Shown here one piece after another: positions 8,777-24,290 of a DNA stretch of 55,499 bases. The stretch is from the IMG/VR virus record IMGVR_UViG_3300013094_000003, positions 1 through 55,499 of that record; one strand, 5' to 3'. Source of the stretch: a virus. Its lineage: Duplodnaviria; Caudoviricetes. The position numbers and the translations under genes were made by a program. The notes beneath the pieces were generated by a model. That model was not told the DNA's origin and ran no database searches. It saw nothing but the letters and a program-made list of their open reading frames with translations. How positions within the stretch are numbered: position 1 is the stretch's first letter; each line of letters opens with the position of its first letter.

Positions 8777-11023
8777 TTATTCTTGATTGCCATTTAAAAC
8801 ATTATATAAAGTTGGTAAATAATTAGGTTTAGTATATTTAACACCATAATCTTTAGTTAATAAATCCCTAGCATAAATAGGATCAGTTAATGCCTTCTCA
8901 AATATTTCATAATTTCGATTTGGGACTGTTATTCCTTTTAAGCGTTGAGGAATAAAAGGAAGTTTTCTAATACCAGGAAGATCACCCCAAGCAGTATAAG
9001 GAGTTAAATTTTCTTCTCCTAAATACTTTTTTACCCTTTGTGTTATTCTCCCTTTTGGCTCTGTTGCCGAACCAAAAGCAGAGTTACCCCTCGCTACTTC
9101 CGCTCTATTTTTCAAGTATTCGTTAATTTGCTTAAATACCCCTAGTTCTTCAGGAGAATAGATAGCATCAAGTTTATGACCTCTTTCCCTTAAAAATTGA
9201 CTAGATTTATCATAAGTCGGTAAATTATGATCAGTAGCCTTTCCAAGGTACATATCCCTAAAATAAGCCTTAGTTAATTTCTCTGCCGGTGTTCCTTTTA
9301 CCTGCTGCATATAATTAACTACACTAGCCTTAGGCGATGCCATGATATTGCGAGGTAAATCATCAACAGGAACTCTATAGGCATCCCATTCATCCTTTGA
9401 TACAAATTTTTTAAGTAGTTTATCTCTATTGATTTTATTAATCTCAGGAGAATGTTCCTTGTAAACTTGTCGATGAGCTAATCCTTCAGGAGTTGCTTCT
9501 AAATCTACTTCTAAAGCTTTTTTCTGTTTGGTAAAATGCCTAATTAGCGAATCATTACCACCCTTTGCAGACCTTTTTAACTCTGTAATATTATTGCCGA
9601 TCTCTGTAATTGCCTTATCAATATGACCTGGACTATAATGTCCGCTTTCTAAAGTAGCAATTTTCTCTTTTAAATCACCAATTTTTGAAATTTTTCCACG
9701 AAAACCAGGCATTAATTCATTTAGTATCTGATCTTTAGCTTGAAAACTTAAACCAGGATATTCCTTTTCTACCTGCGTAATTATTTTATTTACTTCTTTT
9801 TCAAGCTCTGTAAGTTCTGTTTTAGATTTTTCTGCTAGCCTTTTATATTTATCAGGTAACAAAGATTTATTCTTATTTAATCCCTTTTCTATATCGCCAA
9901 GCTCTTTGGCTACAGCTTGCTCCGTATAATTATTTAAATTTTCAGTAGGATATAAATTAGGTGATTCTTCCAGTTTTGCATACAATGGACTTGCTGCTTT
10001 TTCCCTTGCCTTTTCTAGCTTTCCCAGTTTTTTACTAATTACTTCTCTCCCTGCTTCTCCTACTTCTATCTGTGTTGGATTTGACTCACTGCCGATGTTA
10101 TTTAGTTTCCTACGTAAAATCTCATCATTAGCAGTCATTTTACTCTGTATTCCGGTAAAATTTGGAGCATAAGCATTATGTAAATTTGATATATCATTAT
10201 GTAAAGCTACTTCTGCCGTAACAGGAATAACATCAAGGCCCTCAGGATTAAAGTTCATTAAGTTATCAAGCCCTTTTTCTTTAGTAGTATCCTTAAATAA
10301 AGCACTAACCTTTTTTTCTCCTCTTTTAATTGGATTAAAATGGTCTCTCAATGCACTATTAGTTCTAGAAACGCCCCGTCTTCCCGCATAAGTAGTAAGA
10401 TCGGCAACTATTGGATTAACACCTCCATATTCTTGTAGCAATCCACTTCCAAGCCCTGTTGCTCCTTCAATAGCCATATTTGCAAGTTTTGCTTTCTTTG
10501 CCCACGCCCCAGGAACTGCAAAATCTATACCATGACCTATCATCCCTTGTATTTGATCTGGTGCTTCTGCATCTAAATTAAATCCAGCTTCCTTAAATAT
10601 TGGTCTAGTAATACGATTGGAGGGACGACCAATATTTTCTTCGCTAAAATAATCAGGTTTTTGGCTAAATTCTCTAAACTTCCGAGACCAATCATTCTTA
10701 TCTTCTTCATCATTTCCAATAATGCTATGATCAAATACGTCAATAGGGTTTTGTTCTTCATAGTCTGCTAATTTTCCTGCTATCCATTTTGCTCCTCTTT
10801 CTCCTGCATATGCAAGATCATGTGCTAAATCAATAGGGTATCTTGAAATTACATCTGCGGTCTTGTTTACTAAATAAGGATACTCATCATTATCTACAGC
10901 TTCTCTTTCATATTCGTTAGGAGTTGATATTTCATATTTTGAGAGATCAAATTTTTTAACAATAGGTATCTCATTTTCTTGAGGATTCTGAATTTTATAT
11001 TTAGAAAGATCAAATTTTGCCAT
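8777..11023 (-). CDS. Putative ejection / DNA-transfer protein
   Basis: Large helical protein in an operon with other ejectosome-like genes; KFDLSKY repeated at the N-terminus. Confidence 0.55.
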   Translation of the reverse strand: MAKFDLSKYKIQNPQENEIPIVKKFDLSKYEISTPNEYEREAVDNDEYPYLVNKTADVISRYPIDLAHDLAYAGERGAKWIAGKLADYEEQNPIDVFDHSIIGNDEEDKNDWSRKFREFSQKPDYFSEENIGRPSNRITRPIFKEAGFNLDAEAPDQIQGMIGHGIDFAVPGAWAKKAKLANMAIEGATGLGSGLLQEYGGVNPIVADLTTYAGRRGVSRTNSALRDHFNPIKRGEKKVSALFKDTTKEKGLDNLMNFNPEGLDVIPVTAEVALHNDISNLHNAYAPNFTGIQSKMTANDEILRRKLNNIGSESNPTQIEVGEAGREVISKKLGKLEKAREKAASPLYAKLEESPNLYPTENLNNYTEQAVAKELGDIEKGLNKNKSLLPDKYKRLAEKSKTELTELEKEVNKIITQVEKEYPGLSFQAKDQILNELMPGFRGKISKIGDLKEKIATLESGHYSPGHIDKAITEIGNNITELKRSAKGGNDSLIRHFTKQKKALEVDLEATPEGLAHRQVYKEHSPEINKINRDKLLKKFVSKDEWDAYRVPVDDLPRNIMASPKASVVNYMQQVKGTPAEKLTKAYFRDMYLGKATDHNLPTYDKSSQFLRERGHKLDAIYSPEELGVFKQINEYLKNRAEVARGNSAFGSATEPKGRITQRVKKYLGEENLTPYTAWGDLPGIRKLPFIPQRLKGITVPNRNYEIFEKALTDPIYARDLLTKDYGVKYTKPNYLPTLYNVLNGNQE

Positions 11024-21233: not shown

Positions 21234-21602
21234 ATGTTTAAAATATTTTTAGAAAAATTAAAAAACTTTTGGAAGGAAGACAAAAGTGATTATTCAAATT
21301 TGAATGGAAATGATGTTTTTATTGGTGATTTTAACCGCTACACAAGTTATAAAGGTATATTGTATATGGTATTATCTAATATAGAATTATTGGATAATAC
21401 AGAAAATCATATAGGTAAATTTATTTATATTAATGAGTATCACTTTAGTAATATCAATAATATTGGAGAATTTTTAGATAAAATAAAAGATAGACATAAA
21501 GTTATTTTTAATGCTAAGTTTAATCTTTTAGCAGAAAATAAAAATTATTATAACAATAAGGAATACTTTAGTGATGTTAAAATTATAGATTGTGGGTATT
21601 AA
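21234..21602 (+). CDS. Hypothetical protein
   Basis: ORF directly after rep. Confidence 0.6.
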   Translation: MFKIFLEKLKNFWKEDKSDYSNLNGNDVFIGDFNRYTSYKGILYMVLSNIELLDNTENHIGKFIYINEYHFSNINNIGEFLDKIKDRHKVIFNAKFNLLAENKNYYNNKEYFSDVKIIDCGY

Positions 21603-22482
21603 AAAAATTTAACTGTTCTGGTCTTTTTATATGCCGTTTTATTTTTAAAATTTCATATTCACTTTTTAATCCTCGATCAGTCTCAAACTGAGTAATTCTT
21701 ACTTGACAGAATAGCCTATCTCCCATAGAAAAGGAAATGCTACCATTTTCGATACCATCTAAAAAATCTGAATCTTTTATTATAGCATTGATTTCATTAT
21801 TACCATCAAAAAGCCTCCATTTATTATCTTTTTTAAAAATAACGGAAACTATAGAATAAACGTGTTCAAACTCCTTTGTAGATATTTCTTCATTTTGTAT
21901 TTCAGGTTTAACAAATAATATTCCTTCTTCTTTTTCTACCCGCTCCAAGATTTTATCTTCTGAAATAATAGCAAATTCATCATATCCATCTTTTGCTAAT
22001 GGTTTTGCTATAGCTTCATTTAAATTTTCTCTAATTTTTATATTGTTATAAAGTTCAAGGACACGTTTTTCAACTTCAATATATTGATCGTCTTCGCGAT
22101 ATATTCTAATATTTTTATTGTTTATAGGTTGAATTTTATTAACTTTCTTTTTTCCTAAAAATTTAATTATACCTACACAAGCTGATACTACGCTTAGTAT
22201 TTCTATACCGTTTAATGTTGCTTGCGCAGTATCAGAAATAAGAAACTCTTGTAAATTCTGTAAAAAACTTTGAACAGTTACAAAATCTATTTTAAATGAT
22301 CCAGTTTTAAAAGAGGCCTTGATATTTACTTCTGACTTAGTACGTCCATGGTTTAATACCTTATCTGCTTCCTCAAATATTTCTGCTATGGCTAATAAAG
22401 CAGATGCAAGAGATTTAGCATTTATCTCGTTATCTTTTAAGGCTGATCCATCGTATACAATGTGAAATATAGCTCTACTCAT
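21583..22482 (-). CDS. Conserved prophage accessory protein of unknown function
   Basis: FHIVYDG.AL...EI....LA.ALL...KASFKTGSF and C-terminal KWRLFDG OB-like segment; follows vapD. Confidence 0.7.
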   Translation of the reverse strand: MSRAIFHIVYDGSALKDNEINAKSLASALLAIAEIFEEADKVLNHGRTKSEVNIKASFKTGSFKIDFVTVQSFLQNLQEFLISDTAQATLNGIEILSVVSACVGIIKFLGKKKVNKIQPINNKNIRIYREDDQYIEVEKRVLELYNNIKIRENLNEAIAKPLAKDGYDEFAIISEDKILERVEKEEGILFVKPEIQNEEISTKEFEHVYSIVSVIFKKDNKWRLFDGNNEINAIIKDSDFLDGIENGSISFSMGDRLFCQVRITQFETDRGLKSEYEILKIKRHIKRPEQLNFFNTHNL

Positions 22483-22485
22483 TAG

Positions 22486-22752
22486 TTACCTATTATTTCT
22501 AACTATCTCGGTAAAATCCGACCAGTCTTCTACTTTAAAAGCTCTAATATCTCGTACTGAGTCAGAGAACCACTGAACATTAGAGAGTTTATTAATTACC
22601 TTATAAACAGTTGTAAGATCGTTTTTCTCATTTTTGGATAGATACAAACTACCTTGTGTTCCAATAAAGCCTAAATCTTCCATCATGGCTCTAATTTCAT
22701 CTTGATGCTCCTTTAATTTTGTTTCTTCTATATCAAATAATATTGCATACAT
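22486..22752 (-). CDS. vapD: VapD (Cas2-like) nuclease with an 8-residue internal deletion
   Basis: [32 protein letters not shown]; lacks the usual YGEPYNKAY segment. Confidence 0.9.
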
Positions 22753-22813
22753 TTTATTAAATACCTATTAGAAAATATTTGATTATGATTAAATAATAAG
22801 TAATATCTTTTTT

Positions 22814-22954
22814 GAACCTTGGTTTATCCAAGGCTCGGCCGCTGTCAATCGGCCAATGGTAGCATCGAGTAATTTGTGTTCTTAACATAAATTACCTCTT
22901 TAGTTACAAGCTCCTTGCTTTAGCTGGGGGTAGTTGACCATAAGCTTTGTTGTA
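22814..22954 (+). ncRNA. Orphan IS200/IS605 TnpB-type reRNA scaffold (22814-22938) plus 16-nt guide (22939-22954)
   Basis: Four consecutive hairpins; right-end-like acaagctccttgctttagctgggggtagttgac; loop gtcaat pairs with terminal gttgac; hairpin terminator follows the guide. Confidence 0.68.
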
Positions 22955-23014
22955 AGACCCTTTCTAAAGGGTCTTTAACTTAGCTACTTCCATGTTGAAT
23001 GATATTGCGTACAT
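22939..23014 (-). pseudogene. vapD: 5' fragment of a second vapD, truncated at the IS-like end
   Basis: Reads MYAISFNMEVAKLKTL*KGSYNKAY in frame and stops at the gtcaac boundary. Confidence 0.85.
22954..22980 (+). terminator. Hairpin directly after the guide
   Basis: aagacccttt-ct-aaagggtctt perfect inverted repeat. Confidence 0.55.
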
Positions 23015-23036
23015 ATACTTTTAAATCGCTGTTCAA

Positions 23037-23678: not shown

Positions 23679-24290
23679 CTAAAGTTTAAGCCTTTTGGTT
23701 GCGCGCGCGCGAAGCTCTCCTTTTGGGCTAACATACATATATAGTGTACTGCGTGTTATTTTTAATTCTTTGCAAAGATCGGTTACAGAAGTATCTCTAT
23801 TTTTCATAGCGGCTTGAGCCATTCGCACTTGCGCTTTACTTAATTGAAATTTTCTACCACCATTCGTACCTCTAGCACGAGCTGCAGCGAGTCCTGCTTT
23901 TACGCGCTCGCTAATTAAATCACTTTCAAACTCAGCAAGCGATGCAAATATTCCAAAAGTTAAACGTCCTGCAGCGGTAGTTGTGTCAATATTAGCTCCT
24001 TGTCCTGATAAAATACGAAAACCGATATTTCGTTTTGTAAGATCGGTGATAGTTTTGACTAAGTGAGAAAGATTACGCCCTAATCTGTCAAGTTTCCAGA
24101 CTACTAAGACATCATGTTCTCTCAAGGATTTTAAACAAGCCTCTAATCCCGGTCTTTTATCATTTCTACCTGAGGCATAATCTTCGTAGATATAAGCCCC
24201 TTGTACGCCGTGTGCTTTTAGAGCATCTAATTGGAGATTTGTTGTTTGAGAGCCATCTGCTTTTGAGACTCGCATATAACCGACAAGCAT
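23679..24290 (-). CDS. Serine resolvase/invertase with C-terminal HTH
   Basis: GYMRVS catalytic Ser, WKLDRLGR, AEFE..LI.ER...GL.AARARG, HTH; 203 aa. Confidence 0.95.
   Translation of the reverse strand: MLVGYMRVSKADGSQTTNLQLDALKAHGVQGAYIYEDYASGRNDKRPGLEACLKSLREHDVLVVWKLDRLGRNLSHLVKTITDLTKRNIGFRILSGQGANIDTTTAAGRLTFGIFASLAEFESDLISERVKAGLAAARARGTNGGRKFQLSKAQVRMAQAAMKNRDTSVTDLCKELKITRSTLYMYVSPKGELRARATKRLKL

Follow-up and report, generated by a model that had tools for sequence, protein, structure and literature searches.

The window, which here denotes the whole analysed stretch of 55,499 nucleotides (IMG/VR virus record IMGVR_UViG_3300013094_000003), was a complete 55.5-kb tailed-phage record (completeness 100%) with terminase, portal, and structural matches. 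Its vapD region contained two vapD pieces on the minus strand, a resident gene encoding a short 88-aa allele (22486–22752) and a 25-codon N-terminal remnant of an interrupted canonical vapD (22939–23014, by translation). The segment at 22779–22954 was almost certainly the guide-RNA gene of a tnpB-less transposon of the IS605 family, of the TnpB-only (IS1341) type. On the plus strand, a promoter-like site (TTGATT-16-TAATAT, 22779–22806, with TTGATT at 22779–22784 and TAATAT at 22801–22806) was followed by a structured stretch ending in GTTGAC, by 16 nt, and by a perfect hairpin. The structured stretch was a scaffold of the ωRNA or right-end RNA (reRNA) type (22817–22938), delimited by its consensus fold and by homology, and the right end of the transposon fell at 22938. 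The 16-nt guide, CATAAGCTTTGTTGTA (22939–22954), was flanking vapD DNA, antisense of the stretch coding for YNKAY-D, and the perfect 8-bp hairpin, AGACCCTT-TCTA-AAGGGTCT (22955–22974), stood directly after it. When read from 23014 on the minus strand, the vapD remnant translated as MYAISFNMEVAKLKTL, a stop, and KGSYNKAYG. On the left side, a 78-bp segment (22701–22778, minus strand) stood in place of the left-end hairpin of the transposon, and the left edge of the insertion retained TTCAT, the transposon-adjacent motif (22696–22700, plus strand). No second copy of the element was found within the window. A first-pass annotation of the same DNA, made from the letters alone, had already described the promoter-like site, the hairpins, the pseudoknot partners, the 16 nt, and the perfect hairpin at these positions, and had correctly read the 16 nt as antisense to the YNKAY stretch of vapD.

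Relatives of the whole stretch were found by pattern scans of IMG/VR, and three copies of the element (L016, L017, and L018) were compared with that of the window. The IS200/IS605 right-end-like terminus noticed in the first-pass annotation proved to be real homology, and the BLAST comparison with TnpB loci that it had proposed gave a match. The whole scaffold matched the 3' end of tnpB and the right end in L017 (87% over 126 nt), and the scaffold identities were 87.3% with L017, 86.7% with L016, and 84.3% with L018. The IS1341-type element of L017 (5469–6720, 1252 bp) contained a 361-aa TnpB open reading frame (ORF), the last codons of which, together with the downstream sequence, corresponded to the scaffold of the window. 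The encoded TnpB gave 72.5 bits with PF07282 (Cas12f1-like TNB) and 40.3 bits with PF01385 (OrfB_IS605), matched solved Cas12f/TnpB structures, and contained, as read from its sequence, the GIDLG motif, the LED glutamate, and the ANAD aspartate. A decayed C-terminal coding remnant of TnpB (EPWFIQGSAAVNRPMVASSNLCS followed by a stop; 22814–22885, plus strand) was recognised in the window by tblastn and translation. The L017 element and the window shared the promoter box, the scaffold, the right-end terminus, and TTCAT, whereas neither the tnpB for the 361-aa protein nor the hairpin-bearing left-end terminus of 51 nt was present in the window.

The right end was also matched outside these viruses. 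Positions 22898–22935 were ~87% identical over 38 nt to IS605-type ends of Helicobacter by blastn. In the Helicobacter phage Pt11444_1, the match lay directly 3' of an annotated TnpB-type ORF with a divergent transposase adjoining, and it was therefore regarded as an IS605-type right end. In plasmids and phages of Helicobacter pylori (L005 1311–1362; L006 2001–2039), an IS605-type right end was ~85% identical over its last 40 nt to the element of the window, a freshwater phage, which indicates that the terminal stem-loop is conserved across distant TnpB lineages.

The homology among the copies ended at ...GT(A/T)(G/A)TTGA(C/T) in 4/4 cases, and the sequence beyond this point was specific to each copy. 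L016, located on the same contig as L017, was a copy of 211 bp in which both ends were present and tnpB was missing, and it corresponded to the definition of a palindrome-associated transposable element (PATE), or miniature IS200/IS605 element. L018 was another TnpB-less copy. The three TnpB-less copies (the window, L016, and L018) shared the same internal deletion junction, from promoter to scaffold, and the same promoter. Therefore, they represent one non-autonomous lineage, which was inserted at three or more sites. The promoter boxes of the window aligned with the TTGACT/TTGATT boxes of L016, L017, and L018, and the promoter-like site is, as judged by this alignment, the transposon's own left-end tnpB promoter. 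L017 and L016 began with an identical 51 nt containing a hairpin, and TTCAT preceded the left ends of both despite unrelated flanks, for which reason TTCAT was regarded as the insertion and recognition motif. This left-end sequence of L016 and L017 was missing from the window, so that the window, with its right end present and the 51-nt left-end terminus absent, was not a PATE by this test. In the window and in L018, all sequence to the left of the -35 box was lost and the sequence from the -35 box onward was kept, and the flanks of the two were unrelated.

Several further modules were observed. The L018 module (9682–9841, plus strand) lay 10 nt from the start of a gene for a ProQ/FinO-domain protein (9237–9671, minus strand; PF04352, 65.6 bits), in which, by comparison with the empty sites L067 and L069, a short new ribosome-binding site had taken the place of ~58 nt in the 5' region. 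ProQ-type proteins bind structured small RNAs, and the pairing of this module with a ProQ-like gene is therefore perhaps not accidental. In L009, a shorter right-end-like module (~8037–8130, minus strand) with a GTCAAC loop hairpin and the end ...GGGGGTTGTTGAC was located behind a promoter-like TTGAAA-N17-TATAAC, and no TnpB domain was found in this record, which is 9% complete. The 3' flank of the L009 module resembled the guide of the window at 11/14 bases (87% by blastn over 54 nt, with the right end included), probably by chance. A scan of metagenomes yielded only L030, a duplicate of L018, and a GC-rich relative (L028 1689–1766; L029 12125–12202), which shared the sequence of hairpin 2 and its loop and ended in ...GGTAGTTGAC; the sequence upstream of this relative was, by eye, not tnpB coding.

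A consensus structure of the scaffold was built from an alignment of the window and the three relatives, four sequences in all. It was composed of four hairpins and a long-range helix, with 44 pairs including the pseudoknot. Hairpin 1 (22817–22833), hairpin 2 (22837–22854) with its loop GTCAAT (22844–22849), hairpin 3 (22867–22898), and hairpin 4 (22910–22931) were formed on the plus strand, and the long-range helix connected 22859–22863 with 22903–22907. The 3' tail GTTGAC (22933–22938) was paired with the loop of hairpin 2 to form the pseudoknot, all 6 pairs of which were kept in 4/4 sequences. With the pseudoknot included, 98.3% of 176 cells were paired, compared with 28–43% for slid partners, and the conservation covered the whole 120-nt scaffold as well as the pseudoknot. 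The plus strand folded with -67.8 kcal/mol (z -6.2), which was reached by 0/200 shuffles. In hairpin 1, the pairing was preserved, and both partners had changed in two of the pairs. The 12/12 full-length close TnpB coding copies shown read SWNIRDK at this place, whereas WFIQGS was found in the window and two stop codons were found in L018. The TnpB frame of hairpin 1 was thus gone and yet its pairing was kept, which hints at continued function. The features by which a TnpB ωRNA or reRNA is recognised were found together: the homology to the tnpB 3' end and right end, a multi-stem structure with a pseudoknot beside the guide (in four sequences), and a homology break at 22938 combined with a target preceded by TTCAT.

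When the window was searched with Rfam, nothing was found at gathering score, and ARAGORN found neither a transfer RNA nor a transfer-messenger RNA (tmRNA). A beta_tmRNA candidate was rejected at 17.8 bits against 84. HEARO, the ωRNA of IscB (RF02033), was rejected at 17.4 bits against a gathering score of 83 (E 0.26; 22869–22938, minus strand). In this match, the TnpB right-end terminus, read as its reverse complement, was aligned with the first 55 positions of the model. An IscB-type ωRNA on the minus strand, for which the 16 nt would serve as a guide on the 5' side, could be proposed from this weak match and has next to no probability. The score was far below gathering with 145/211 model positions skipped, the plus strand was homologous to the tnpB 3' end, and the plus strand folded better than the minus strand (z -6.2 versus -4.7). 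Because of the homology to L017, the IscB-type explanation is refuted for practical purposes.

When the insertion site was compared with its uninterrupted relative L035, positions 90–1542 of L035 corresponded to window 24424–22973 with 96.9% identity, and positions 1576–1786 to window 22701–22491 with 93.4% identity. The remnant at 22939–23014 was collinear with L035 1500–1576, and the upstream operon was 97% identical. Precisely at the junction of TTCAT and CATAAGC inside vapD, the window contained an additional 237–238 bp, with an ambiguity of one base. From this collinearity it follows that the 16-nt guide was a by-product of insertion into vapD; the guide, which the first-pass annotation had called programmed, was the flank of an ordinary insertion at TTCAT. 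The guide differed from the L035 allele at 22940, 22949, and 22952, which are synonymous third positions by reading of the aligned codons.

TTCAT as the adjacent motif was supported in two independent ways, by the left ends of L016 and L017 and by uninterrupted vapD alleles. TTCAT is also a published motif of an IscB element, which belongs to the same superfamily (PMC10055086). In related viral contigs, vapD was found at 34 loci, and the antisense of intact vapD read TTCAT followed by C(A/G)TAAGCTTT(G/A)TT(G/A)TA. The guide of TnpB is 16 nt in length. TTCAT joined to the guide was found at 12 of the 34 loci with one (3), two (7), or three (2) mismatches, and TTCGT or CTCAT was found instead at four further vapD loci. 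The L039/L044 allele had one distal mismatch and the L033 allele one proximal mismatch. Targets of the kind suggested in the first-pass annotation were present at these loci as near matches, none of them exact. In the window, the search with TTCAT and the guide returned only the element's own end, with two mismatches, both in the motif.

The resident vapD was a rebuilt gene. On the minus strand, the 78-bp segment supplied the ribosome-binding region, the ATG, and 17 codons in frame with the old vapD body. This segment was absent from the collinear L035 and was 88% identical to the short allele of L032, compared with 74–81% for canonical alleles. The canonical allele has 94–97 residues; the 88-aa VapD lacked eight codons (the YGEPYNKA-Y region), which hold the protospacer. 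The 16 nt after the TTCAT of the resident vapD itself matched the guide at 7/16 positions. The 88-aa ORF and the remnant were both members of the VapD (Cas2-like) family. The 88-aa ORF gave 21.7 bits with the Cas2 fold of Pfam, just under the cut-off of 23.8, and the canonical allele had 980 homologs (E ≤ 1e-10), several of which were named VapD by the Joint Genome Institute and many of which contained PF09827. Among the 120 VapD homologs listed, the deletion was shared only with P0028 (the L032 allele) and the region was otherwise almost invariant; at the 34 vapD loci, the protospacer-deleted allele was found once. The window and the L032 short allele differed by 18 synonymous and 5 non-synonymous codons, which indicates that the short VapD was under purifying selection. 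TAC repeats stood on either side of the 24-nt deletion, which covers the region in which TnpB is reported to cut.

As the first-pass annotation had noted, the vapD remnant after the guide has become a palindrome, and this change was not random. At 22955–22974, 11/20 positions differed from L035, compared with 5/142 in the flanks (binomial P about 1e-11), and these changes created a perfect palindrome and a TAG stop in the vapD remnant. The perfect 8-bp hairpin was unique in the window, with 0 expected in shuffles, and the variant encoding it was found in none of the 120 vapD homologs listed. It was identical in run X4. The position of this patch directly after guide position 16 hints at continued function.

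The stop codon of the remnant within the hairpin could also suit a local regulatory part without guide function, namely a divergent promoter or insulator for the rebuilt vapD, or an antisense RNA to the upstream operon. In both the window and L018, moreover, a gene on the minus strand started 10–26 nt from the left edge of the element and had acquired a new ribosome-binding site. Such a role is improbable, since it leaves the conservation of the 120-nt scaffold and its pseudoknot unexplained, as well as the protospacer-free resident vapD, and no minus-strand promoter was called at the locus by the consensus scanner.

In agreement with the first-pass annotation, the TnpB-type guide-RNA module was found without a nuclease on the phage. 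In the 100%-complete record, no TnpB domain (PF07282, PF01385) and no Y1 TnpA (PF01797) was found, and tblastn with the L017 TnpB gave only a 22-aa C-terminal remnant at 22814–22879 (residues 339–360, 68% identity). A search with PF14239 (IscB) gave no match in the window and none in the control genomes either. As no tnpB adjoined or overlapped the scaffold, the window contained a stand-alone copy, and the compatible effector elsewhere in the same genome that accompanies stand-alone ωRNAs of the OMEGA systems was not found in the phage.

The matching TnpB sought in the first-pass annotation was found in L017. The contig of L016 and L017 contained kilobase stretches 72–93% identical to the window phage, and the TnpB carrier is therefore a sibling phage. 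In the protein database, 11 TnpB clusters were 76–95% identical to the L017 TnpB, and four of these were on contigs of 50–60 kb. From these comparisons, a sibling phage appears the likeliest source of the nuclease. The first-pass annotation had instead proposed a domesticated guide that relies on a TnpB of the host, or on a nuclease-dead TldR, and through which vapD would be cut or silenced on the host or on other elements. The phage without a nuclease is compatible with this proposal, as is the description of stand-alone ωRNAs acting in trans (PMC10691335). It is nevertheless very improbable, because the contigs on which the cognate TnpB was found were that of a sibling phage and others of phage size, and the L017 TnpB keeps its catalytic residues by motif reading, with nothing pointing to TldR. 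In addition, a 22-nt word of the scaffold had 0 matches in 185,579 species-representative genomes, and a protein-based scan of these genomes gave no TnpB above 44% identity, with relatives at 37–44% in metagenome-assembled genomes of Chloroflexota type. Since no close bacterial match to the scaffold or to TnpB was found, no host could be named. TerL was only 41% identical to that of Roseobacter phages, and no host was inferred from it.

The preferred interpretation, a transposon-derived guide-RNA gene that still acts with the TnpB of a sibling phage in trans, has an even chance of being correct. The origin of the locus is almost certain. A TnpB-less copy was inserted 3' of TTCAT on the antisense strand of the phage's vapD, and the DNA beside its right end became the guide, as in every element of the IS605 family. 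The left-end hairpin was lost later, and the element can therefore no longer be moved by a Y1 transposase. The 78-bp piece gave the old vapD body a new start and thereby an 88-aa VapD without the guide target. The function is less certain. From the transposon's own promoter, an ωRNA of ~150–170 nt, ending at or near the hairpin, would be made, and this RNA would be inert by itself. In a cell that also holds a TnpB-bearing sibling phage, TnpB would load the ωRNA and cut the canonical vapD of related phages, which contains TTCAT and the protospacer. Such a cut would damage the competing phage, or else its repair with the window phage as template would copy the cassette into that competitor. The resident vapD would be immune because its protospacer was deleted, and the cassette would be immune because TTGAC replaces TTCAT. 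That the cassette still works as a trans-acting guide is judged to fall just short of an even call, and if this function fails, the cassette is a recent, inert scar. Five unusual features speak for the function: the lost left end with the rebuilt vapD, the resident allele free of the target, the new hairpin beside the guide, the single TnpB-less lineage, and the hairpin-1 pairing retained despite the decayed frame. To these may be added the unchanged cassette in another study, the close TnpB relatives on phage-sized contigs, and the published stand-alone ωRNAs that act in trans. A domesticated status, as claimed in the first-pass annotation, is suggested by four features of the sequence.

A more elaborate form of the proposal, in which the insert of 238 bp serves conflict between phages as a self-contained cassette for RNA-guided allele replacement, is unlikely. 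Here, the ωRNA would send the sibling TnpB to the canonical vapD of a co-infecting phage, and the break would be repaired from the window phage. The converted genome would keep a working and immune vapD, because the cassette brings a vapD start without the protospacer. A deletion that escaped such cuts would have been the origin of the short vapD allele. The logic would be that of an intron with its homing endonuclease, split so that the RNA is located on one phage and the nuclease on another.

Several results weigh against a guide that is still active. TTCAT with the exact guide had 0 matches in viral contigs and was found at 0/69 loci, and the allele of the closest relative, L035, differed by three mismatches. 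The guides of L016, L017, and L018 had no TTCAT-linked match with up to two mismatches in the window. No vapD was found in the records of L017, L018, and L009, which are too incomplete (45%, 64%, and 9%) for this to be informative. The partial record of L032 contained the short allele but no cassette, either beside it or at another place, so that the link between allele and guide could be a recombination accident, and the C-terminal part of vapD could be assigned to neither parent (93.4–93.8% versus 91.5%). Pair-level covariation as high as that observed was obtained in 26/500 shuffles, with four sequences only. The promoter scored 8/12 and was not called by the consensus scanner, and the hairpin was not called as an intrinsic terminator because too few T follow it. 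The cassette was found in one genomic background only, and therefore showed no sign of spreading. The contigs of RNA run X16 covered only canonical vapD relatives and not the element, which is no evidence that the element is not expressed.

These results bear on the explanation that the cassette is an inert scar, which is possible if somewhat doubtful. According to it, a miniature element was inserted in vapD, and recombination with a short-allele phage removed the left end and restored vapD. The promoter, scaffold, and guide would persist because the event was recent, and the hairpin and the allele association would be accidental. The single background, the weak consensus matches of promoter and terminator, the lack of an exact target, the occurrence of the short allele without the cassette, and the lack of a transcript (in X16, which covers canonical vapD relatives only) fit such a scar, as does the strong mosaicism of the phages, in which L031 has no vapD module and the gene of a 299-aa protein downstream of vapD is missing in L033 and L039. 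Other observations are difficult to reconcile with it. The substitutions at 11/20 positions are clustered so as to make a perfect hairpin that follows guide position 16 without a gap, with the low binomial P given above. The pairing of hairpin 1 was kept after coding was lost, two copies with unrelated flanks have the same left boundary just before the -35 box, and the protospacer-deleted allele was found at only 1/34 loci.

In contigs of another study (X3, X4), the vapD, scaffold, guide, hairpin, and remnant were recovered with 0 differences. None of the records of L032, L033, L035, L039, and L044 was found to contain the scaffold. In the freshwater metatranscriptome X16, contigs of uninterrupted vapD relatives covered window 22491–22701 and 22974–23015, and the loose end at 22701 continued as ATAAGCTTTATTATAGGG...; the target allele was therefore present in an RNA library.

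When the locus was compared with known systems, the closest likeness was to published cases of the same family. Stand-alone ωRNAs that work in trans with compatible effectors, and PATEs with ωRNAs that need TnpB in trans, are described in PMC10691335 and PMC10055086, and the biological role of stand-alone ωRNAs is stated as unknown in PMC10691335. Since stand-alone ωRNAs are already in print, the kind is known. As in the accounts given there, the window has a scaffold derived from a right end, no effector or transposase gene, and the flank as guide, with TnpB in trans. In the published cases, the effector is described as lying in the same genome, whereas the window is a complete phage genome without one. 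The window differs further in its pairing with a rebuilt, protospacer-free copy of the interrupted gene and in the new hairpin abutting the guide, and it differs from a mobile PATE in the loss of its left end. The phage setting, the left-end loss, the rebuilt target-free gene, and the hairpin are new here. A full-text literature search, which did not extend to supplementary lists, returned no paper in which a stand-alone ωRNA carried by a phage adjoins an allele without the protospacer, which is no proof that none exists.

The proposed logic also resembles that of free-standing phage homing endonucleases, with intronless homing and marker exclusion (PMC13565253, PMC11620839). In both, the allele of a co-infecting relative would be cut, the own allele would be immune, and spread would occur by repair or by harming the competitor. 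The difference is that, in the proposal, specificity would be provided by an RNA and the nuclease by a third party. Transposon homing between co-infecting phages is listed as a category in a 2026 review (PMC13565253). TldR guide RNAs likewise use a scaffold of the TnpB family away from transposition; they adjoin a nuclease-dead tldR, whereas the window has no such gene and the cognate protein looks catalytically intact.

Virus-borne mini-CRISPR arrays use resident Cas machinery against rival viruses. They share with the window an orphan guide on a virus, a nuclease located elsewhere, and a match to related viruses. In the window, by difference, the scaffold is derived from a transposon, no repeat-spacer array is present, and the guide was obtained by insertion instead of spacer acquisition.

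The locus separates the parts of such a system, with the guide on one phage, TnpB on siblings, a common target allele, and a resistant allele beside the guide. If the proposal is true, RNA-guided transposon nucleases take part in the competition and gene conversion of co-infecting phages, as protein homing endonucleases have so far been documented to do. The locus would then show a guide outliving its nuclease, and the length of the guide would be set naturally by the 3' hairpin. If the cassette is inactive, it is a clean, datable example of an IS605-family insertion resolved in a phage gene.

The surroundings of vapD varied among the relatives. The 299-aa ORF downstream of vapD (21583–22482, minus strand) had no Pfam match, was missing at the same place in L033 and L039, and had a 96% identical copy in L031. 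In L031, the DNA upstream of this ORF was unrelated and the whole vapD module was missing. The vapD region is a recombination mosaic. On the other side of the locus, a 203-aa ORF (23679–24290, minus strand) was, by eye, serine recombinase- or invertase-like.

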